This document shows positions 8,566 to 60,500 of a stretch of 64,000 nt of DNA, in pieces. The position numbers were made by a program, and so were the translations under genes. The notes beneath the pieces were generated by a model that was not told the origin of the DNA, searched no databases, and saw only the letters and a program-made list of their open reading frames with translations. The stretch lies in assembly GCA_964638425.1 (NCBI GenBank), contig CAZWYM010000001.1, forward strand, positions 74,441-138,440, in the 5' to 3' direction. How positions within the stretch are numbered: the first letter of the stretch is position 1; each line of letters begins with the position of its first letter. The DNA comes from an uncultured Candidatus Saccharibacteria bacterium. Lineage in GTDB: Bacteria; Patescibacteriota; Minisyncoccia; Phycocordibacterales; UBA918.

Positions 8566-11500
8566 TTAAGATTCATTCTTCTCCGTCACATTATGAGATT
8601 CTACCTTTTCCCAATAACTTTTTTCAGTCGCACTAATCCTTCCATCAGGTTTTAGTTGCAATAGAAAATCAACAACTGATTTCTTCCCCCCGTTACTCCA
8701 CGAATCTAGGGCAGAAGCAACGTCTTCGTAGTCCTTCTGATATTGACTGAAGGACGGCTTCAACGTTAGTAAATTACTAAATGCCAAATCCAAAACTTCC
8801 TGAGAGTGACCATCTCTGATCATACAAAACAAGCTGAAAATATAATCCTTTTGCAGAGTCTCTTGTAACTCAGAGAAAAATCCAGTAACTACTTTAAGCG
8901 CAGAGGAATTTACTGTAGCTAAAACTTTACCTGGTTGTCTCAAAAATTCTAATGTTGACTTAACTATTTCTCTCTTCTTTTCTATGCTCAAAAAGTCTGC
9001 TTTTTCAAAGAAAAAATGCCCTACTTCGGATGTTTCAAGACTATCCTGGTTAAGTAATTCGATTACTTGCTTTGACACTAACTCCTTTATTGCAACATCA
9101 TTGTTTTTATTAATCTTGTCGGCAACAAAGTCATACATCTTCCTTCTACCCGCAATCCCAATAGTCGGAGCCTTGTTCAGTATTTTTTCAACTATTTCTG
9201 CCCTTGCATAATCTTTAGGCTTCAATGTAGCAATAAATTCTATCGCCTGAAGAGGATCTTGGGCAATTAGTACATCAAGTATTTGAAGTCTAGTTTCATC
9301 AGAAGAAAAATCATATATCACCTTAGTAAAATCTGGTTGTGACAAAACTCTTGGTTGAATGTTTGGTAAAAATTCGGTCACTAATGTTTGAGCATAAGTG
9401 ATTTTCCAAAACGTGAAGAACTCACGGACCGCAACCGCATTAGCATTTTGTAAAAACTGTACAAATAGTTGTTGCGCTTCGGTTTTCTGTGGATCAACAA
9501 GACTACTTCTTAGATAAATAAGTATAAGAGATAGGGTCTTACGCTTTTCCCATAAAGGAATCGCGTTGAAGGTTTGAACTATGTTTTTTATAAAATCAAC
9601 CTTATCTGCGGGCAAAAGTAATTTCAAATCTACTCTGAAAGTAACCAGCAAACCGAGAGCTTCCTTAAAGAATTGTTCTTTTTCTTCAGTAAAACCTGAA
9701 ACTGCTTGATTGTGTGCAATAGTAATTTCAGTAAGTTTTTTGAAGAGTTGAGGAAAGACTTTCTTCTCTATTACCATATCACTCAGGTCAGTCAACAAAG
9801 CTTTCTTTGTACCAAAGTTTTCTAGTGAAGCTGTTTCAACAATCCGTTCAATACTTTTTTTCGTAAGAAACTTGCTTTTATCATCGATTCCAACAAAAAG
9901 ATTCAAGATGTCGTCTCTTACGGAGTAATGTTCCTCAATAGCTTGTGCAATATTCAAAACATGTTCATTTGTTAGTAACTGCTTTTGCTTTACTAGGTTT
10001 TGCAAAATGCTCTTAACAATTGCTATTTCGTTAAAATTTTTAAACTCTTCGGTTGCAGAAAGTGCCAGAACATAACGGTCAAGAATATTCTTTCTAATAC
10101 GAGAATCAAGATTGGGATCCGCAACTACAAAATCAAAAATCACATCAGTTGGCAACTTCTGAAAAGAAGGCCAAACTTTACCATCAAGTAAGCCCGCGAC
10201 AGTATTTATATAATCTCTACTAGTCAGATTTAGCTCACCAAGAACAGTTAACTGAGTTTTAAAAATGGTTGTAACTACATCAATTCCGTGATTTTTATAC
10301 TTGTTGAGGATTGAAATAATGAACTCAAGCAAAGTTGCCTTGTCTGTTTCTGCCTCTATATGAGTTTTTGCCGTAGTTTCATTTCCTTCTATGAGAGAAA
10401 GCCTGATGGACTCATCATCTGTAAGAAGGTCGGAGATAACAGGTTTCTTTAGGTATATAAATGGTTCAGCATCCTCAACAGTGATTCGACTGGTCTCAAG
10501 CATGAAATTCTCAAACTCCTCACGAAAAGGCGGTTCTTCTGCAACCACTACTTTCCTATACGTACCAAGTATCTCTTCAGGTGCATACCAAGATTTTTTC
10601 AAGTTTTGAAATGCCTCGGGGTACTTATGCATTAGCACAAGTACTTTTGCCATATATGCAATATTATTAGAAACAATATCCTTAACCTCAGTATTGAAGG
10701 CAACAAGAACTGCAGAAATTAAATTGTTAATAAATTGTTTTATCTCTCGAGGATTGTTAGAAAATGCAGACTCTATAACCAAGTACACATCATCATTTTC
10801 TAAATAATTTTTAATGTCTCCTGTTTGTTTGATCTGTTCTTTCACGAAAGTACGAATGTCGGTATCAATATATTCCGGAGTCCAAACAACAACATTGAAT
10901 ATCTTTCTTAAAAACTCGTCGGCTAACTCAGCGCTAGGAGCTGCCTTTTTAATTGCTTCAAAATCACATGGGACGAGAAAAACAACATTCTTACCTTTTG
11001 CGTCCACGTCTTTAATTTCAAGAAACGTTTTTAGAGTCGACAGGACTTCCGTAGCAACTTTAGAGTCAACACGGTCAAGATTGTCTATAACAACCACAAC
11101 TCTATTGGTCTTAATTTTTGATAACTTTAAAATCCGTACAAAAGATTTCTCAAATTGTTCGGGAGAACTTAACTGTGATTTTGAGGAAGTTATCGGAGAA
11201 ACCATAATAATCTTTTTGAAGTCCTCCCCAAGTACTTTCTCTATAATTAAAGCAATTGAAAGTGCCAACGAAAAACTTGTTCCGGCCCAAAGTTTCCATT
11301 GTGTGGCAAGATCAGGGAAGACTTGCCACGTAAACAGACCAATTATTATTAGGAACGGCAGCGACAAAATTGCCACCTTCTTCAAATAACCCCAGGAGAT
11401 GGATACCTTTTCGCCTACAGTTTCGCTCAGAGAAAAATAAAGTTCCTTCTCAAGCTTATCAATTTCATTTTTATTTACTTGCAAATCCTTTGCTATCTGC

Positions 11501-19041: not shown

Positions 19042-19082
19042 AAAAATAATCCCGAAGGTCGCCATGGCGACCTTCGGGATTA
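19042..19082 (-). terminator. rho-independent terminator of the DUF1653 gene
   Basis: Hairpin aatcccgaaggtcgcc atg gcgaccttcgggatt followed by a T-run on the minus strand. Confidence 0.6.
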
Positions 19083-19092
19083 TGGGCGTATC

Positions 19093-21045: not shown

Positions 21046-21694
21046 ATCCTTAAATGATAGCAGATCTGTGTTTAAAAGTGAGTTGCGTTTCTCCAGAGCG
21101 CTGCCAGACTTGGAATCTCTCTCATTACATGAGCAGTACACCTTGTCGATATTTTGTTTCCTTACATCACAAAATATCTGGCAAGGTCTTCGAGGTCAGG
21201 GACTCGTCCCGCTTTTTCTAGTTCACTTCGTTCACAAGAACGCTGGACGCGGCTCGCTGTTTCGTCGCAAGCTCCTCATATCGCTCCGCCGTTCGAGTCC
21301 CTGACTGGCTAGCAACGACAAAGGCCACAGACGTATTCACGTTTGTGGCCTGTCGATTGCTGCCAGTCAGGGACTCGAAGCTTACAGCTTCAGTTCAGGT
21401 TGTATGATATTTTCTTTCAGAAAATCTCGACAACCTCCTTAAAAGTCTCCCAGACTTTTAAGCCCCAATAAAATGCGAATGAGGCGTGTCCTAGAGCCGA
21501 ATGAGTGAGTGTGAAAGAAAATGTGTTGAGTTTCCACAGAGCGCTGGCCGTCTCGGGCTAGAACCGTAGGTGACCAAGCCCAGCTTGACGGAATCAGCTC
21601 ATTTTACACTACCTTACCGACGCGTCTCGTGCATCTCAAAAAGTGACAAAAGTGACACGGAACAGCCTGTAATAGTTACAGTCATCTGTAACTA

Positions 21695-30192: not shown

Positions 30193-30280
30193 GGGTAGAG
30201 GGCGAACCCTCTCGTACCAGTTTCCCGATACGGCCTATCAAGCAACCCCATGACGGGTTTTTTATGCTTGATAGGACTTT
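30144..30280. repeat. 15-bp direct repeat tgcttgataggactt (30144-30158 and 30266-30280) with an inverted copy at 30233-30246, in the nuclease/recombinase divergent region
   Basis: Seen directly. Confidence 0.5.
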
Positions 30281-30476
30281 TCGCCATGCCTCGGATAACT
30301 CTGAGGTTTAGGCTACTTCTATATATTCTGTTGTTGCACAATGATAACAGATTTTGCTACCGATTTACACCTTAACGCACAGATGCTGTTTTGTTAAGAG
30401 TATGACGCGAGTATGCGTCGTTTATCTAGTTCTGCATAGACTATGCACCACTGATGGTTCTGTCATTAATGGTCGT

Positions 30477-31826
30477 ATGGAAACACAAGTGATTAACAAT
30501 TTCGGTGTTAAGACGGAAGTACCGGCCACACCAGTTCGCTACGTCTTGTATGCGAGAAAAAGTACCGAAGATTCCAGCGAGAAACAAGCACTTTCAATCG
30601 ACTCTCAAGTCAAGGAAATGCTCGCAATTGCAGAGCGTGAGGGGTTAGACATAATTGATATACGGCGCGAAGCACACTCCGCAAAAGACTCCGGGCAACG
30701 ACCAGTCTTTAATGAGATTTTAAGAGATATAAAATCAGGAAGATACAACGGAGTGGCAACGTGGAGTCCGGATCGCCTAAGTCGTTGTGGGGGTGACTTA
30801 GGTTCACTTGTTGATCTTATGGATGAGAAACATTTAATTCAAATCAGGACATATGGACAGACATTCACCAATACTCCAAGTGAAAAGTTTTTACTGATGA
30901 TCCTGTGTAGCCAAGCTAAATTAGAAAATGACCAAAAAAGTATCAACGTGAAGCGAGGACTTAAGACCAGAGTAGAAATGGGATTGTGGCCTGCACCGGC
31001 ACCAACGGGGTATATCAAAGAGAAACGGATGGACAGAAAGTGCGAGACTTTGATAGATCCAGACAGAGGTCATATTATTAAGCAAGTATTTGATAAAGTC
31101 GCATACGAAAAATGGAGTGGTCGAAAAGTATATAACTGGCTAAAATTTGATTTGAACTTTAAAACAGCTGGAGGGAACAAAAATCTTTCGTTGAGCAATA
31201 TATTTGTAATACTTCAAAATCATTTCTATTACGGTGTATTTGAATATCCAAAAAAAAGTGGCAACTGGTACAAAGGAAAACATGAACCGCTTATATCAAA
31301 AGAACTCTTTGATGCAGTCCAGATGCAAGTAAAGAGTCAGTTTGTCCGATCTGAGAATAAAGAGTTTGCATTCACCAAGCTCATGACATGCGGACTCTGT
31401 GGTTCAGGTATCTGTGCTGATGAGAAGTTCAAGAAACAGAAAAATGGGAATGTGCATCGACACGTATATTACGGGTGCACCAAATCAAAAGACAAAAACT
31501 GCAGGTGTGGCTATATCAACGAAATTGATCTTCTCAAACAATTTGAAGAGCTGATGGATAAAATTGATATAGATGAGATAGGTATCAAACAAAAATTGAA
31601 AGAAGAAGTGGAACGATTCAAAAAGTTCCAGAGAGTACTACTAGGAAAACCAACTCAAGTGACCGTTGAGGAGGTTGATATACGAAATTATGCAAAATAT
31701 TTACTCAGGGAAGGTAAGGATGTAGAGAAGAGAGAATTGCTAGGATGCATAAATAATACAATATATTTAGCAAGTAAAATAATAACTCTACAGATGAGTA
31801 AAAATTGCTTTATTATTGAAGAATGA
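30477..31826 (+). CDS. large serine recombinase (resolvase/invertase catalytic domain + recombinase domain + zinc ribbon)
   Basis: YVLYARKSTEDSS...LSIDSQ catalytic region; ATWSPDRLSR; C-terminal CGLCGS...YYGC zinc ribbon. ORF opens at 30354; Met at 30477 chosen. Confidence 0.8.
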   Translation: METQVINNFGVKTEVPATPVRYVLYARKSTEDSSEKQALSIDSQVKEMLAIAEREGLDIIDIRREAHSAKDSGQRPVFNEILRDIKSGRYNGVATWSPDRLSRCGGDLGSLVDLMDEKHLIQIRTYGQTFTNTPSEKFLLMILCSQAKLENDQKSINVKRGLKTRVEMGLWPAPAPTGYIKEKRMDRKCETLIDPDRGHIIKQVFDKVAYEKWSGRKVYNWLKFDLNFKTAGGNKNLSLSNIFVILQNHFYYGVFEYPKKSGNWYKGKHEPLISKELFDAVQMQVKSQFVRSENKEFAFTKLMTCGLCGSGICADEKFKKQKNGNVHRHVYYGCTKSKDKNCRCGYINEIDLLKQFEELMDKIDIDEIGIKQKLKEEVERFKKFQRVLLGKPTQVTVEEVDIRNYAKYLLREGKDVEKRELLGCINNTIYLASKIITLQMSKNCFIIEE

Positions 31827-52701: not shown

Positions 52702-53595
52702 TTAACCTAACTGGGTCTCTGAGTCTATAAATATCTGAATATCACCTTGTAATACCTTCTCAATATCGCGCACCTCTGTGTCGGTGCGATGATCTTTTAC
52801 GAGCTGGTACGGATGGAGTACGTATGAACGTATCTGACTTCCCCATTCAATCTTGAGAGTCTTCTCTACCGACAAGCCCTTGAGCTCGCGCTTGTGTTGC
52901 TCTTCTTCAAAGGCGTATACCTTTCCTGCGAGGAGTGCGAGTGCCTTCTCTTTGTTTTGTTGTTGACTACGCTCTGAAGAAACGTGCACTGAAATTTTGG
53001 TCGCGAGGTGTGAGGCACGCACTGCGGTCTCGCGTTTGTTTACGTTTTGCCCTCCTGCTCCTCCAGCTTTTGCATAGGTAATCTCTATATCGTCGTCATG
53101 TAGTCCAACCTCCTTTACGTCGTCAATACGTGGTGAGATTTCAACAAGTGCAAAGGAGGTCTGTCGCTTCGCGTTTGCATTGAAGGGAGAGATACGCACC
53201 AAGCGGTGCACCCCCGACTCGAGTCTCAGTGTCCCGTACGCTTCTTTTCCTCCTATTTCAAATACGACGTTGCGGTATCCATTGTGGTCGTTTGTATTTG
53301 AATCAATAATCGAAACTGACCACCCTCTCCCCTCAGCATATTTCTGGTACATCTCTACAAGCATCCGCGCAAAGTCTTCTGCATCGTCTCCTCCTGCACC
53401 AGCAACGACGGTAACGATTGCGTTGTTCCTGTCGTACTTCCCCTTCCCGTCTTTTTCTGCCTTGAGTGTTTCAAGTTCCTTAAACATTGCCTGCGCTTCC
53501 TTGGGGTTGTTCCAAAAATCAGAGCGCACCATTGCGTCTTCAATTTCCTTTATTCGTTCCTCAGGCGAGAGTGACATAGAATATGAGTATACCAC
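52702..53595 (-). CDS. prfB: peptide chain release factor 2 (N-terminally short; GTG start)
   Basis: SPF tripeptide (RISPFNANA) and GGQ motif (AGGQNVNK). No in-frame CTT TGA frameshift site seen. Confidence 0.8.
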   Translation of the reverse strand: MVYSYSMSLSPEERIKEIEDAMVRSDFWNNPKEAQAMFKELETLKAEKDGKGKYDRNNAIVTVVAGAGGDDAEDFARMLVEMYQKYAEGRGWSVSIIDSNTNDHNGYRNVVFEIGGKEAYGTLRLESGVHRLVRISPFNANAKRQTSFALVEISPRIDDVKEVGLHDDDIEITYAKAGGAGGQNVNKRETAVRASHLATKISVHVSSERSQQQNKEKALALLAGKVYAFEEEQHKRELKGLSVEKTLKIEWGSQIRSYVLHPYQLVKDHRTDTEVRDIEKVLQGDIQIFIDSETQLG

Positions 53596-53710
53596 TTAAT
53601 CCTTACCAAGCATTTCGTTGCTTTTACAATGCGAAAGGAACATTATTTCCTCCTTTATTTCTTGACATGCGGTACCAAAGAGATACTGTGGATAGAGAAA
53701 GGAGACGACC

Positions 53711-53929
53711 ATGACCAAGCTCACATTTAAACCTCTTTCGAGAGGACGGTACCGATGTAATCAAACAGGAACAATCATGACACAACGGCAAATTCTTGCC
53801 TACGTATCTGGCTTCCTTGCTACGGGACATGAAGTGAAGATTGCACCAACACACTCCCCTTCACCAAACGCACCCGCGGAGGAAAAGAAACAAGACCATC
53901 CATCAAAATACAGGACAAAACATTCATGA
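53711..53929 (+). CDS. small hypothetical protein
   Basis: 72-aa ORF with SD-like AAAGGAGA 8 nt upstream and a hairpin terminator at ~53945-53975. Confidence 0.35.
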   Translation: MTKLTFKPLSRGRYRCNQTGTIMTQRQILAYVSGFLATGHEVKIAPTHSPSPNAPAEEKKQDHPSKYRTKHS

Positions 53930-54144
53930 AAATACGACCAACGGACACTCTCAAGTGTCCGTTTCTTTATAAAAAATACCCCCGCGGTGGGTATTTATGT
54001 TTTTGACGTCAGCTCACTAATTCGCTTACGCTCAAAAGTGGCTCCTGTCCGACCTCGCGGTTTTGGCATTATAAATAGCCAAAACATCGCTCCGGTTCTC
54101 AAAGCTAAAAAACAACACGCAGGTGTTGTTTTTCTTTACGCCTT

Positions 54145-54162
54145 GAGCCATCTCCCGGGATT
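54145..54162. repeat. direct copy of the 3' 18 nt of tRNA-Thr(GGT)
   Basis: gagccatctcccgggatt is identical to 54301-54318. Confidence 0.7.
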
Positions 54163-54256
54163 GGCGTCCAACTCTAGTTCACTACGTTCACAAGAGTTAC
54201 CTGCCCGCGGTTTGCTGTTTCGTGACATTAGGAATAATGTCACTCACATCGCAAAC

Positions 54257-54276
54257 CGTTCAATCCCGGGAGATGT
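54257..54276. repeat. inverted partial copy of the tRNA-Thr(GGT) T-arm/acceptor 3' end
   Basis: ccgttcaatcccgggagatg. Confidence 0.6.
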
Positions 54277-54301
54277 CTCCCTCGTCATTATATTCCTCGT
54301 G

Positions 54302-54374
54302 AGCCATCTCCCGGGATTGAACCGGGGACCTCATCCTTACCATGGATGCGCTCTACCGACTGAGCTAAGATGGC
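54302..54374 (-). tRNA. tRNA-Thr (anticodon GGT)
   Basis: Acceptor GCCATCT/AGATGGC, D-arm GCTC AGTCGGTA GAGC, anticodon stem CATCC/GGATG with loop ATGGTAA, T-arm CCCGG TTCAATC CCGGG. Confidence 0.8.
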
Positions 54375-54518
54375 AATAGTACAGTGTGAAGGTGGTTAAA
54401 AATTCATTGACATAGGGAGTGTCAATTTAGGACCACTATAGGTATGGTCAACGCCCCTCACACTGCGATAGAAGAATACCAAAGTTTTCACTGAAAACAA
54501 AACGTATCGATACCTAGA

Positions 54519-55361
54519 TTAGAGGGAAAGTTCATTCATCCGAGCAAATGTAAATCCTTCGTCTTCCAATGCATCAAGGAGATTGGTGTAATATTCTTGA
54601 TACTTTTCGGCACTATGCGCAGGACCATCTGCAAAATCTTGTGGGTGCAACATAATAATGCAGTAGGTACTTGTCTCAAATCCAACCTTGCATGATTCCA
54701 CAATTTTTTCTGGGGTAAGAAGCGAATCTGTATCATAGTTAAATGTAGATGTGTCGTAATCGAATTGCCCTTTCCCTTCCGATGAGAGGTGTGTGAATCC
54801 GAGTTCATGGAGGGCCTCTACGGTACCTTGCGAATGTACGTTAAACGGAGGAATCCATGTCACAACAGGCTCTTCCGTAACCCCACGTAGCACTTCTAAA
54901 CCAAACAAGATGTGTTCGCGCGCTTCTTCTTTTGTGTATGTACCAAACTCTGGATGGTTGCCATATTCTCCTCCATCGTGTGTTAGCCCATGTAGTGCAA
55001 TTTCATTACGACATGCCGTGGCTTTAAGAAAAGCGCTCAGTGCTTTGTCATCATTAAGACCTAACGGAATGAGTCCTAGAGTAAGTGGTATGTCACGCTT
55101 CCCTGCATCAGTGATCATTTTTTCGCTTGTTTCCCTCCATGAGTAGGCTTGAATGTCGTCAATACGTAGTACGACTGTTTTATCACTCACCGTTCCCTCA
55201 AGTGGTATACAGGTTTTATTAATAGAAACATCGACTGGTAATACACCAGAATTACTGAAAAAAGCAACATAAATAACTCCTGCAACCATTCCTCCAAACA
55301 CGGCAATAATACCGACGAGACGGAGTGCTTGTGTAAATTGTTTTAAAAGTGACGGCTTCAT
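54519..55361 (-). CDS. polysaccharide deacetylase (NodB-homology) family protein, membrane anchored
   Basis: RIDDI (TFDDG-like) and HGLTHD motifs. Confidence 0.6.
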   Translation of the reverse strand: MKPSLLKQFTQALRLVGIIAVFGGMVAGVIYVAFFSNSGVLPVDVSINKTCIPLEGTVSDKTVVLRIDDIQAYSWRETSEKMITDAGKRDIPLTLGLIPLGLNDDKALSAFLKATACRNEIALHGLTHDGGEYGNHPEFGTYTKEEAREHILFGLEVLRGVTEEPVVTWIPPFNVHSQGTVEALHELGFTHLSSEGKGQFDYDTSTFNYDTDSLLTPEKIVESCKVGFETSTYCIIMLHPQDFADGPAHSAEKYQEYYTNLLDALEDEGFTFARMNELSL

Positions 55362-55449
55362 GAATGTACAATATATAGTATCATTCTAAAAAGACAATCA
55401 GGGAAGATTGTTTGATACTGAGGTATATATGTACTAGAGTAATTTAGTT

Positions 55450-55522
55450 GCCGTTTTAGCTCAGTTGGTAGAGCATTGCATTCGTAACGCAAAGGTCCGG
55501 AGTTCGATCCTCCGAGACGGCT
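55450..55522 (+). tRNA. tRNA-Thr (anticodon CGT)
   Basis: Acceptor GCCGTTT/AGACGGC, D-arm GCTC AGTTGGTA GAGC, anticodon loop TTCGTAA, T-arm CGGAG TTCGATC CTCCG. One A31/C39 mismatch. Confidence 0.75.
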
Positions 55523-55632
55523 CATGAAGTAAATGAGGGGTCTCGGATATATGTTTCAATATATACCTAGGATCGAAAAGGATGTCGGGATTTTCTCCCG
55601 AAAATACCATACAACCTGAACAGAATCTGTAA

Positions 55633-55656
55633 GATTCGATCCTCCGAGACGGCTCA
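55633..55656. repeat. direct partial copy of the tRNA-Thr(CGT) 3' end (22/24 nt)
   Basis: gattcgatcctccgagacggctca versus 55501-55524. Confidence 0.7.
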
Positions 55657-55734
55657 GAATAAAGCCTGGATATAGCGTTGCAAAATATGTATAGAACGGC
55701 TATACTCATCGCTATCGCATGTGTTGATACATTT

Positions 55735-55808
55735 GCGGTGGTAGCTCAACTGGTTAGAGCACCCGCCTGTCACGCGGGAGGTTGCGGGTTCGAGTCCCGT
55801 CTACCGCG
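55735..55808 (+). tRNA. tRNA-Asp (anticodon GTC)
   Basis: Acceptor GCGGTGG/CTACCGC, anticodon stem CCCGC/GCGGG with loop CTGTCAC, T-arm GCGGG TTCGAGT CCCGT, discriminator G. Confidence 0.85.
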
Positions 55809-55816
55809 CAATTAGT

Positions 55817-55848
55817 AAAACGGCAATTTCAAACGAAATTGCCGTTTT
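55817..55848 (+). terminator. hairpin terminator after tRNA-Asp
   Basis: aaaacggcaatttc aaacg aaattgccgtttt. Confidence 0.55.
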
Positions 55849-55989
55849 ACGTTATGAGCGGTAGTTTCAAATGTGTGGGACACATTTGAAAAGGGGCTCG
55901 AAGAATCTGAGCAGGCTCTGCGAAGAGTGTACTGAACAAAACAATTTCGAGATATTTTCCTTAAAATATGGGATAAGACGCCAAGGATT

Positions 55990-56185
55990 GGTCACGAGTT
56001 GCTAAGTATTATTCGAAGCAAAGCTTCTTAAATCCTAAGCACTCTCGACTCCACCTCGACTCTACCTCCTGCCCCGCAGGCAAGTCTGCGGTTTTCAATC
56101 CTTGCCGTCGAAAAACTTAGTACACAAAACACCAGATGTGTATCTGGTGTTTTGTGTACTTGTGTCGACGGCAAGGATTGAAACG
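55990..56185. repeat. structured repeat element X (~190 bp): GC motif, inverted tRNA-Met 3'-end arm, 42-bp palindrome, direct tRNA-Met 3'-end arm
   Basis: Homologous (~75% by eye) to element Y at 57372..57560. Outer arms at 56097-56112 and 56162-56184 equal the tRNA-Met 3' end. Confidence 0.65.
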
Positions 56186-56293
56186 TACCGTTTCCGTTTA
56201 GGTTGTATGATACTTTCCTCCTTCGGTCGAAAGTATCGACAACCTTTTCAATCCCTGACGTACTCTTTCCCAAAGAGTACTCCCTCGCCAGTC

Positions 56294-56316
56294 AAAAACC
56301 GCCGTGAGGCGGTTTT
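56294..56316 (-). terminator. rho-independent terminator just after the tRNA-Met 3' end
   Basis: aaaaaccgccgtgaggcggtttt. Confidence 0.6.
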
Positions 56317-56321
56317 ATTTG

Positions 56322-56394
56322 TGTCGACGGCAAGGATTGAACTTGCGACCTTATCTTTATGAGTGATATGCTCTACCAACTGAGCTACGCCGAC
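56322..56394 (-). tRNA. tRNA-Met (anticodon CAT; elongator or Ile-lysidine type)
   Basis: Acceptor GTCGGCG/CGTCGAC, D-arm GCTC AGTTGGTA GAGC, anticodon loop CTCATAA, T-arm GCAAG TTCAATC CTTGC. Confidence 0.75.
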
Positions 56395-56603
56395 AGGTGA
56401 ATGCGCGAGCGAAATAAGAATATGTATATTCTTATTTTCGAGCAAATGAAATCTGTATGGTTCCCCTACGAGTGAGGAAGGGGGTGAAAATTTATTTTCA
56501 CCCATTTTCCGAACGAAGTCGGCGGAAGCTTTGCTTACACCGACATACACATAATGTGCGTGTGCAAGAATACCATTAGATATCCTTCCCTTCAACCTTC
56601 TTA

Positions 56604-57281
56604 TTATCGCATTGATAAAATTGTTTCCGCCTTCACTATATCTTCTGGGTATCCTATTGGAATCCAGAATTGCTCCTCAACTACCGCAACAGGATACTCC
56701 CGCGCATACCGCTCAATCACTTCAGTGAGATAATACTCGCCATTGACTGGATTTGCTGGTTCAAATTGAAATATACGGTCATCGAGAACCATGACTCCTG
56801 TCGAAACGAGATTAGAAGGAGGGTGTGTCGGTTTTTCAACAATTTCTGAAAGTGTTCCATCTGGGTTACGCACGACTACTCCGAAACGCTCTGGTGTATC
56901 ACTTGTTTTTGCGAGCATACCCCGACTGTATGATGCGACGCGTGCAATATCATCCTTGCCGTGGATATCGTCGGCAAACATAAAAAGGAAACGTCCCTTC
57001 AGAAGGTCTTTACATAACCAAAGTGCTCGCGCTGTTCCATCTTGCTCAACTTGCTCGATATAGGTTACCTTCTTCCCTTGGAATTCAGAACCGTAATATT
57101 CACGGATTTGGTCACCTAGATAACCCACCACAATGATAAGCTCGTCGACAGCGCTCGGGAGCGCATCAATGATGTGATTGAGGAGTGGCTTCCCCGACAC
57201 AGGAACGAGTGGCTTAGGAGTATTTTCTGTAAGCGGGCGGAGACGTGTCCCCTTTCCTGCTGCTAAAATGACGCATTGCAT
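56604..57281 (-). CDS. sugar-phosphate nucleotidyltransferase (NTP_transferase family)
   Basis: N-terminal VILAAGKGTRLRPLT signature. The track ORF extends to 57596; ATG at 57279-57281 chosen. Confidence 0.75.
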   Translation of the reverse strand: MQCVILAAGKGTRLRPLTENTPKPLVPVSGKPLLNHIIDALPSAVDELIIVVGYLGDQIREYYGSEFQGKKVTYIEQVEQDGTARALWLCKDLLKGRFLFMFADDIHGKDDIARVASYSRGMLAKTSDTPERFGVVVRNPDGTLSEIVEKPTHPPSNLVSTGVMVLDDRIFQFEPANPVNGEYYLTEVIERYAREYPVAVVEEQFWIPIGYPEDIVKAETILSMR

Positions 57282-57371
57282 ATACTCGTATTTATAGCAT
57301 GAAAGCATAAAACAAAAAAACACCCCATACGGGGTGCTTTTTGTAACGTGTTGCGAGAGGTGTGGAATCGA

Positions 57372-57560
57372 CATCGAGTTCCTAAGTATTTTTCGCAAAC
57401 TCAAAATACTAAGGACTTGTCGGCTCACCTCGGCACTTACCCCCGCCCCGCGGGCGTGCCTGCGGTCGTTCGATTCCAGACATTTTCGCAGAGAATACAA
57501 AAAGATCTGCATAATGCAGATCTTTTTGTATTCTTGTTGCGGAGCCTGGAATCGAACCAG
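57372..57560. repeat. structured repeat element Y; second copy of the X family
   Basis: T-arm-like inverted arms gttcgattccag (57468-57479) and ctggaatcgaac (57547-57558) around a 41-bp perfect palindrome (57493-57533). Confidence 0.65.
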
Positions 57561-58008
57561 GGTCTGGAGGTTATGCTTACCTGCTACAATTTTCATTGCT
57601 CAAGCGATAGCTTGATTTGTGGTCTGGACTATACCTTCATCTTTCTTAAAAAAGTTAAGATGCCTACCATCTAGTCTCTACACCTTCCCATCACTTTGAT
57701 GGGCTTGGCTCGGTATTGCCATGTGCTATACGCACGAAGGTTTCACCGAATTTGGCAGGATTCCATAGAGCATTTCTGCTTTACGAGCCCAATTGAGCCT
57801 CCCGAGGTACCTCTCCTCTACTCCGCGATGATGTGTTTGCTTACCTCTCCTCGTCCCTACTTGAACAAGTGAGGGCGGAAGAATGAATTTATTCATTCTC
57901 TACGTACGAACGCAGTTCAAGCAAGCTTTGCTTACAGGACCTGTTCTTCTACTCACCTCAAAATAATGAGTACACATGAATGTACCGCATGTTTTGAATA
58001 TACGCAAA

Positions 58009-60387: not shown

Positions 60388-60451
60388 ATATCAAGTTATA
60401 TCAAGTTTTGAACATACATCATAACGTACGGCCGTACGTTATGATGTATGT
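60388..60451. repeat. tandem 10-bp repeat (atatcaagtt x2) followed by a perfect 18-bp-stem palindrome
   Basis: acatacatcataacgtacg gc cgtacgttatgatgtatgt, between the ligA stop and the gatC start. Confidence 0.6.
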
Positions 60452-60500
60452 TCCGTATTATGTTAAAAGATACACGTAGGGTCAAAGAACTCATCACTCG

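Follow-up and report, generated by a model that had tools for sequence, protein, structure and literature searches.

The tRNA-Met locus carries two tandem repeat units

We analyzed a 64-kb stretch of the Patescibacteria contig CAZWYM010000001.1 (positions 74,441 to 138,440), referred to here as the window, and describe the repeated, palindromic DNA that lies behind its tRNA-Met(CAU) gene. ARAGORN and the Rfam 15 covariance models placed tRNA-Met on the minus strand at 56321-56394 and 56322-56394 (66.5 bits), respectively, with CCA not encoded. In the following, a denotes the 3' end of a tRNA from the T-loop onwards, a' an inverted copy of a, and DR1, DR2 and DR3 direct copies. The repeat search identified DR1 as the copy of a within tRNA-Met itself, comprising its last ~21 nt from the T-loop and 5 nt of trailer (56316-56341, minus strand), and DR2 as a second copy of 26 nt with one mismatch (56157-56182, minus). 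By ungapped extension, this 26-nt repeat spans the T-loop to 5 nt beyond the tRNA. The 18-mer TCGACGGCAAGGATTGAA occurs exactly three times in the 64 kb, at 56324-56341 in the tRNA, at 56165-56182 as a direct copy and at 56094-56111 inverted, while 0.07 copies were expected from shuffled sequences and three were reached in 0/100 shuffles. A sequence-only reading of the window had proposed that the 3' end of tRNA-Met is duplicated both directly and in inverted orientation, and this holds: the direct repeat has 26 nt with its one mismatch and the inverted arms are exact over 19 nt. The positions proposed were essentially right, only slightly too narrow, as the repeats extend over 56157-56182 (direct) and 56093-56111 (inverted).

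The repeats delimit two units, both read on the minus strand. Unit 1 starts directly 3' of the tRNA with terminator 1 (56294-56316, AAAACCGCC-loop-GGCGGTTTT; terminator scan and sequence). It is followed by a degenerate a' (56247-56290), which is split into a'1 (56282-56290, TGGCGAGGG) and a'2 (56247-56259, GTCAGGGATTGAA) by a hairpin, H1, with the loop GGGA (56260-56281). Next comes a class A module of subtype A4 (56180-56249), recognized by covariance model R1 (59.5 bits, E = 7e-13) and by alignment. Its 3' end is the small hairpin GAAAC-GGTAC-GTTTC, the final TTC of which adjoins DR2. DR2 has a triple role: it ends unit 1, starts unit 2 and forms one outer arm of a ~90-bp hairpin. The center of that hairpin is an inner palindrome (56119-56160) with exact arms of 19+19 nt (56119-56137 and 56142-56160) and a 4-nt loop, and its other outer arm is the a' of unit 2, an exact and unsplit 19-nt inverted copy (56093-56111) that pairs with 56165-56183. 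The class B' module of unit 2 (55991-56092) contains the hairpin CCGCAG..CTGCGG (56074-56091) and then a long hairpin, GAGTCGAGAGTGCTTAGG...CTTAGCAACTCGTGACC; it was assigned by sequence comparison with the class B' modules of the related loci L043, L052, L059, L062 and L100. The unit ends in DR3, a truncated third direct copy, AATCCTTGGCGTC (55977-55990), of 13-14 nt that keeps the rest of the T-loop, the 3' strand of the T-stem and 3-4 nt more. Past DR3 lies the convergent unit of tRNA-Asp.

Folding of region 56085-56192 gave, on both strands, one hairpin of ~40 bp with a 4x7 internal loop. The folding energy was −67.0 kcal/mol for the minus strand (z = −14.7) and −69.2 kcal/mol for the plus strand (z = −12.5), equaled by 0/200 shuffles. 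Thus, a ~90-nt hairpin with the copies of the tRNA end as outer arms, a stem of about 40 bp and a perfect palindrome in between, all anticipated in the sequence-only reading, is borne out. The same reading had taken the hairpin as additional to the tRNA's own terminator at 56294-56316. That terminator is present and the hairpin does lie beyond it; however, the inner palindrome, read on the minus strand from 56160 to 56119, is itself terminator-like, with a GC-containing stem of 19 pairs and a T-run tail (AAGTTTTT), so that the structure is a repeat unit bringing its own terminator. The ~90-bp hairpin is therefore DR2, terminator and a' of the second of two tandem units. A sequence scan found terminators on both sides of the tRNA-Met units and no promoter-like site inside them. 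What the sequence-only reading had missed is the degenerate inverted copy at 56247-56261, the truncated third direct copy at 55977-55990 and the same pattern at four other tRNAs of the window.

Further units in the window

Altogether, five of the six tRNAs in the window have units. tRNA-Asp (55735-55809, ARAGORN) and its own unit, convergent to tRNA-Met, occupy 55735-55976 on the plus strand. The inverted-repeat search revealed a palindrome with 30-nt arms there (55801-55864, plus), made up of the acceptor end, the terminator and a'1, and it is followed on the same strand by the hairpin H1b (55865-55891, loop TGGGA), a'2 (AGGGGCTCGAA, 55892-55902) and a degenerate module. tRNA-Thr(CGU) (55450-55523) has one class A unit (together 55450-55659, plus) with its module at 55575-55637 and an exact direct copy of the 3' end at 55638-55655. 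For tRNA-Thr(GGU) (54301-54374) and its class B unit (together 54143-54374, minus), a' is unsplit (54258-54279), starting 21 nt past the tRNA with no terminator between, and the direct copy is exact (54143-54162). The fifth, an initiator-type tRNA(CAU), is interrupted by a group I intron and followed by a unit (together 57340-57827, minus), the exons lying at ~57794-57827 and ~57537-57573 with boundaries read from the sequence; its unit consists of a terminator palindrome (57492-57534), a'2 (TGGAATCGAAC, 57468-57478), a class B module and the truncated direct copy GATTCCA (57363-57369), all on the minus strand. A module cluster also occurs away from any detected tRNA (21085-21500, minus), with H1b plus module A at 21377-21438, a second module A at 21120-21191, a tRNA-3'-end-like a/a' palindrome at 21292-21379 and a class B module. 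Perfect hairpins equivalent to that of tRNA-Met were seen at tRNA-Thr-GGU in the window and at tRNA-Asp in the related locus L097. Judged by eye from an alignment rather than computed, the unit copies of the window are ~70-75% alike, and no recent source copy of unit 2 was found.

The initiator-type tRNA (57537-57827, minus) was not called by ARAGORN. It has a C1xA72 mismatch, and its anticodon loop holds the ~220-nt group I intron (Rfam RF00028, 72 bits, 57611-57805). Another group I intron was found in the anticodon loop of tRNA-Asp in locus L069 (6426-6634, 45 bits).

Units recur behind tRNA genes of related bacteria

For comparison, 81 orthologous loci around the neighboring nucleotidyltransferase gene (L001-L081) and nine metagenome contigs with the same tRNA-Met 3' end were collected. 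The survey of tRNA 3' flanks covered 82 related sources and the tRNAs Met, fMet, Asp, Thr-CGU and Thr-GGU, with 242 tRNAs in the exact-copy count and 236 in a looser one. A direct copy of the tRNA's own 3' end (18 nt, at most one mismatch) was present 123-344 nt downstream in 51/242 tRNAs, and by the looser criteria an a' and/or a copy stood behind 111/236. The signal is specific for the cognate tRNA, as the complement of the acceptor end was found downstream in 44/236 cases versus 32/1180 for non-cognate controls, and the direct copy in 69/236 versus 37/1180. The picture of an appendix peculiar to tRNA-Met, implied by the sequence-only reading, is not supported. We conclude that these units are a previously undescribed family of small, structured, protein-less DNA cassettes behind about half of the sampled tRNA genes. 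No description of such elements was found in the literature, coverage of which was incomplete, so that this is weak evidence of novelty.

The anatomy of the units is consistent. On the tRNA strand, a is followed by a palindromic terminator, a', a module of class A or B/B' and a again (DR2). The a' begins 29-46 nt past the tRNA and is usually split at the acceptor/T-stem boundary by the small conserved hairpin H1, which has a loop YGGGA or of the AGCAAACTGCTTTGCT-type; its second half follows ~32 nt on, and the modules come next. Class A modules end in ...GTACYGAAnnTGTAAnnTTC. The direct repeats always start at tRNA position 52-58, in the T-loop, and end 0-6 nt past the tRNA, or further if the terminator is duplicated too. 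In the looser survey, DR2 was either full length or truncated to 11-15 nt, and such truncated copies are common in relatives. The units measure ~110-330 nt and are protein-less; the inserts of 123-344 nt contain no credible open reading frame (ORF), and no case of genes between the repeats was met in the 82 sources. Each of the module subtypes A1-A4 occurs at several different tRNAs (Asp, Met and/or Thr), indicating that modules pass from one tRNA to another, with a and a' in each case matching the tRNA next to them.

The closest relative, L001, has 91% amino acid identity in the neighboring gene and shares unit 1, with a better preserved a' (CTGTCGACGG-hairpin-CAAGGATTGAA), without DR2 or unit 2. 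Neither of the tRNA-Met units is present in any of the nine metagenome contigs (0/9). The second tRNA-Met unit is therefore lineage-specific. As to the conservation on which the sequence-only reading had made its proposal depend, the exact hairpin is absent from L001 and from 9/9 contigs, while its architecture is conserved.

The repeat boundaries raise the question of whether the units are scars of phages or islands that were integrated by integrases at tRNA T-loops and lost their interior by deletion, leaving the attachment (att) arms. We consider this very unlikely. Work by Reiter in 1989 and by Williams in 2002 is said to describe tRNA genes as integrase targets, with repeats that restore the 3' part of the tRNA. 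Direct repeats that begin in the T-loop, end shortly beyond the tRNA and restore an intact tRNA gene are indeed the classical tRNA-integrase signature. Tyrosine-integrase attL/attR sites, their att-flanked derivatives that lack an integrase (CIMEs) and the tandem ssrA islands of Dehalococcoides share with the present units the repeat of the tRNA 3' part from the T-loop, the intact tRNA, the tandem accretion of units and the decay of older repeat copies. The tandem arrays found here (see below) resemble the direct-repeat arrays described for the ssrA islands (PMC3146451). In contrast to such elements, the units have 110-330 nt, no ORF, no integrase near them and a variable DR2; the insert sizes are tight (123-344 nt), conserved modules abut both repeats and genes between the repeats are lacking throughout. 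Furthermore, the same module types and subtypes sit at five different tRNAs instead of one element per site, an ordinary attP has no cognate inverted copy, and here the T-loop boundary is common to the direct and the inverted copies. The units also have covarying hairpins, and stem-preserving selection would not be expected in decaying scars. Finally, a search for the module A core GACAACCTGTACYGAA in 2.9 million viral contigs gave 15 matches, all of them chance matches within coding sequence with no surrounding module.

Local replication errors, that is, template switching at the terminator palindrome plus unequal crossing-over, with no role for the product beyond termination, are given an equally slim chance. 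Such errors would fit the terminator-like inner palindrome and the many units in which a, terminator and a' form one continuous near-perfect palindrome, though the terminator sequences differ between units. They would also fit the 12/51 cases in which the direct repeat includes the terminator and which indicate local duplication. However, across dozens of genomes and five tRNA species, the direct and the inverted copies share one T-loop boundary; the copies are separated by conserved modules and by H1 hairpins that have sequence in common, and an 83-nt insertion described below has sharp ends. In addition, where long inverted repeats of the window take in flanking gene sequence, this sequence is a tRNA end or resembles one, and none of these repeats lies at a protein gene. 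Both integrase scars and template-switch palindromes are less likely than the mobile cassettes and the structured RNAs that are considered below.

Fold-back copying as the origin of DR2 and the terminator was rejected on inspection, as L100 has its terminator copies in direct rather than inverted orientation. Inspection also led us to reject a tandem tRNA duplicate that has degenerated, since a' is complementary to the T-loop and the discriminator and hence a true inverted copy.

The inner palindrome and its equivalents resemble Rho-independent, bidirectional terminators in having a stem with a GC core between A and T tracts and in following immediately on a tRNA end. They differ from these in stem length: tRNA sequence paired with its complement adds 19-22 bp, much more than termination requires.

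The tRNA-sense strand is under selection to fold

Module A was modeled by RNAalifold with 15 pairs, of which 14 have compensatory changes, and its covariance model found 89 matches in 641 kb. In the alignment, 93% of the cells were paired, as compared with 61% in shuffles and 35-46% with slid partners, and 336 cells had double changes versus ~100 in shuffles. The mismatches of the stems are strand-specific. In folds of the tRNA strand, the ratio of internal G·T to single A·C mismatches over all units was 27:4 for a/a' stems, 41:2 for modules and 28:2 for terminators, while in folds of the opposite strand the balance moved toward A·C (G·T 12 versus A·C 22 for class A and 36 versus 26 for class B). 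A decaying double-stranded palindrome would yield both mismatch types equally. The excess of G·T on the tRNA strand thus indicates that folding of the tRNA-sense single strand, as RNA or as single-stranded DNA, is maintained by selection.

These data bear directly on the main rival explanation, namely that the units encode structured non-coding RNAs, as genes or as trailers, which arise when transcription from the tRNA promoter reads through; we regard it as unlikely, though clearly less so than the two explanations above. In such an RNA, a' and the downstream a would form a 19-22-bp helix identical to the stacked acceptor and T stems, with H1 at the place of the tRNA body and the module at the tip; by analogy with pre-4.5S RNA and minihelices, RNase P and RNase Z might process this acceptor-stem mimic and so free a stable module RNA, and the ~90-bp hairpin would represent an alternative pairing of a' with the upstream copy. 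The strong covariation, with G·U tolerated only on the tRNA strand, fits well, as do the G·A, G·G and U·U mismatches and GAAA loops in the modules, the location of H1 exactly at the acceptor/T-stem junction and the Thr units, which without a terminator between tRNA and a' are necessarily co-transcribed. Module sequences are, moreover, conserved across species in which the neighboring enzyme is only 65-85% identical. Yet a strong bidirectional terminator separates the tRNA from most units, the tRNA-Met units have no promoter-like site, and in many units DR2 is absent or has 5-15 nt, which rules out the acceptor-like helix. Roughly one in two orthologous tRNAs is unit-free, and close relatives differ by gain, loss or replacement of whole units, which is unusual for a needed RNA. 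Nor would an RNA need its helix to copy the neighboring tRNA, and Rfam offers no family match. With tRNA-like processing signals (pre-4.5S RNA, minihelices, RNase P external guide sequences) the units share an a'/a helix equal to the acceptor and T stem stack including the discriminator; they differ in that the T-loop is paired here, not looped.

Searches with Rfam 15 of window positions 53000-58000 and of seven loci returned only tRNAs, the group I intron and sub-threshold noise. As a known RNA family, the tRNA-Met hairpin gave only sub-threshold scores of the miRNA-precursor type and was dismissed. Several other identities were rejected by inspection: a retroviral-type primer-binding site, as a' lacks the TGG to pair with CCA; a box C/D guide, as proper C/D boxes are absent and the organism is bacterial; hammerhead and other small ribozymes, as the junction strands are incompatible and Rfam gave no match; and an omega-RNA-like guide consisting of module and 20-nt flank, as the intact tRNA would be targeted too.

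Units are gained, lost and exchanged among close relatives

The ~96% identical loci L021 and L031 differ by a clean 83-nt insertion in L021, consisting of H1b, GCAA and module A, inside a class B' module. The insertion has sharp ends with no target duplication and no terminal inverted repeats, and its empty site, GGTGTGG|TCAAGAAC, is T-arm-like. In the same pair, a whole cassette has been replaced behind an identical tRNA-Asp. Also behind an identical tRNA-Asp, L100 and L105 have one extra ~190-nt unit relative to L101, which keeps only tRNA, terminator and degenerate a'. Tandem arrays reach up to four units (L069). In the conserved Met-Asp-Thr-Thr cluster, the orientation of the Asp, fMet and both Thr genes varies among the relatives (L001-L081), and tRNA-Asp has many differences at stem positions between the window and L001, with the upstream promoter region conserved. 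The tRNA flips and the divergence of tRNA-Asp are compatible with recombination among dispersed repeats.

Some relatives have further ORFs or tRNA fragments near these tRNAs. In L001, a 152-aa ORF (9308-9766, minus) that adjoins tRNA-Thr-CGU has, by eye, the HNH-like motif CCLCGW...DHIDGNWRNN...LRLVCPNCD; it has no Pfam match and occurs neither in the window nor in the other 80 loci. From its sequence, it may be a free-standing homing endonuclease, perhaps tied to the swapped tRNA-Asp allele. It was discarded as a general enzyme, being confined to one locus and without a Pfam match. In the metagenome contigs L098 and L103, an ORF directly after tRNA-Met, which holds the place of the window's repeat units, has apparent LAGLIDADG-type motifs (GFLYADGN..., GYFDGDGN...; by eye from the DNA). 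In L039 (3657-3912), L062 (3493-3660) and L066 (2082-2251), the real initiator tRNA gene is preceded by incomplete copies of its 5' part, with a period of 92-98 nt and sometimes two in tandem. Upstream of tRNA-fMet in L027, L048, L052 and L053, an H1b plus module A unit is inserted after nt 8 of a 5' tRNA fragment.

A possible mobile cassette

Our preferred reading, to which we give somewhat less than an even chance, is that the units are miniature non-autonomous mobile cassettes targeting tRNA T-loops in Kaiserbacteria-like Patescibacteria. In its favor are the recurrence, cognate match and regular anatomy of the units, the covariation and strand-specific selection of their stems, the turnover among close relatives, the sharing of module subtypes by several tRNAs, the lineage-specific tRNA-Met hairpin, the lack of a promoter-like site inside the bracketed tRNA-Met units and the missing Rfam match. 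A unit would occupy the position from the T-loop to the 3' end, and its new copy of a, reaching from T54-R57 to a few nt past the end, would keep the tRNA gene intact. The palindromic terminator of the unit would act bidirectionally. The older copy of a, displaced in this way, would become DR2, free to decay and often truncated. Units would be gained, lost and exchanged when the T-loop sequence (GGGKT|TCRAG-like) undergoes recombination or transposition. For this, the tRNA-sense strand would fold as a single strand, its a pairing with a' to rebuild a duplex copy of the target, and would serve as the substrate of an enzyme supplied in trans. By analogy with the systems compared below, we infer that mobility may proceed at the DNA level through a single-stranded intermediate and a trans-acting enzyme, with matching of a and a' to the new tRNA.

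Three groups of elements with folded or short DNA substrates offer partial parallels. The attC sites of integrons and the folded attP of CTX-type (IMEX) phages are, like the hairpins here, imperfect palindromes of 60-110 nt with a variable center, of which one strand is selected to fold and the stem rebuilds the duplex recombination site; array formation and a hairpin that may also serve as terminator are further shared features. Here the repeat boundary falls on the T-loop G|TT or a few nt from it, which recalls the G|TTRRRY crossover of attC. In contrast, the R''/R' sites RYYYAAC...GTTRRRY are absent, as the hairpin base here is ...YGAA / TTCRA (T-loop GTTCRAN), no intI/attI or dif context was found in the scanned ORFs of the window, the cargo is structured and non-coding, and the stem copies the neighboring tRNA. 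The non-autonomous derivatives (PATEs) of the IS200/IS605 family and the REPINs, which are mobilized by HUH Y1 transposases, resemble the 83-nt H1b and module A insertion with its hairpins near both ends, no terminal inverted repeats (TIRs), no target-site duplication (TSD), fixed orientation, strand-specific folding and a short T-arm-like target with a GTTC-like sequence, which is also shared with IS91 (target GTTC/CTTG). At three kinds of site, the flanks on both sides are similar to GGGKT|TCRAG, and no transposase was seen in the 64-kb window. The units differ from these families in that neither a Y1 nor a Y2 transposase was seen and in their target-derived direct and inverted copies, which those families do not make. 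Unlike a DDE-type miniature inverted-repeat transposable element, the 83-nt insertion of L021 has no TIR or fixed TSD, and a/a' is not terminal and varies with the tRNA. To our knowledge, no integrase, HUH transposon, integron or retroelement has been described that works by a hairpin templated by its target.

Several points weigh against mobile cassettes. No recombinase or transposase was found adjoining any unit, and neither a free or circular form nor an autonomous copy was seen. In Pfam scans of most ORFs of the window, the only recombinase was a large serine recombinase (30354-31826), 25 kb off, and there was no tyrosine recombinase. The length of DR2, from 0 to >100 nt, is unlike a fixed att core or a fixed TSD, and a single TSD of fixed length was rejected for this range. 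The model has no account of how a and a' both match each tRNA although one module subtype is found behind several of them. In the Thr units, tRNA and a' are not separated by a terminator, so that these units must be co-transcribed with the tRNA; the G·T bias, the GNRA-type loops and the G·A/U·U mismatches fit RNA equally well. Finally, the ~70-75% likeness of the window copies gives no sign of very recent bursts here.

If the units are nevertheless mobile cassettes, the T-loops of essential tRNA genes in these small-genome bacteria of the Candidate Phyla Radiation (CPR) would be home to a large population of tiny structured cassettes under active turnover, and killing of the host would be avoided by the replacement tRNA end and terminator. 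Such a mobile element would be built almost wholly from a mimic of its own target site, and it would provide a system in which to study the recognition of single-stranded hairpin sites and the acquisition of a target copy. The tRNA orientation flips, the swaps of tRNA alleles between close relatives and the variable tRNA 3' flanks would be explained as well. A bolder claim, which we hold to be possible but rather unlikely, is that the units belong to a novel type of mobile element without proteins, or to a novel tRNA-linked RNA family, that on arriving at a tRNA gene writes direct and inverted copies of the tRNA end, thereby re-targeting itself, rebuilding the interrupted gene and bringing a terminator. 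For annotation, partial tRNA 'pseudogenes' and long palindromes behind tRNAs are to be expected in Patescibacteria assemblies.

Neighboring genes and other features of the window

The neighbors of the tRNA cluster are, according to Pfam scans, housekeeping genes: gatA, ligA, prfB, ftsEX, pyrG and the nucleotidyltransferase gene. The best relatives of the nucleotidyltransferase are in metagenome-assembled genomes of Candidatus Kaiserbacteria/Paceibacteria, and an exact-protein look-up found no record. Its mechanically called ORF of 330 aa (56604-57596, minus) is too long, as the domain begins at residue 108; the likely start codon at 57281 gives 225 aa, the length of its homologues. The extra upstream part of this ORF crosses the fMet-associated repeat unit. 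The release-factor gene prfB (PCRF and RF-1 domains; 52702-53854, minus) is split into two ORFs, 53624-53854 and 52702-53595, as expected from a programmed +1 frameshift. A phage or plasmid origin of the region was rejected: megablast of 54000-58000 against phage records returned only a 38-nt tRNA match, and the DNA is chromosomal sequence of a Kaiserbacteria-like CPR bacterium.

The large serine recombinase mentioned above (plus strand) has Resolvase, Recombinase and zinc ribbon domains and lies beside a LOOT RNA (RF03000, 94.8 bits; 30197-30314, minus). The pair is at the edge of a lower-GC stretch of ~6-31 kb that contains a type I restriction-modification system, Fic, a caspase-like protease, a LexA-like repressor, a DNA methylase and SNase and that may be an integrated island. 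Two loopless perfect palindromes are unrelated to tRNA ends, one at 19046-19083 (19+19 nt) and the other at 60410-60453 (22+22 nt), the latter between the gatC-side and ligA-side genes.

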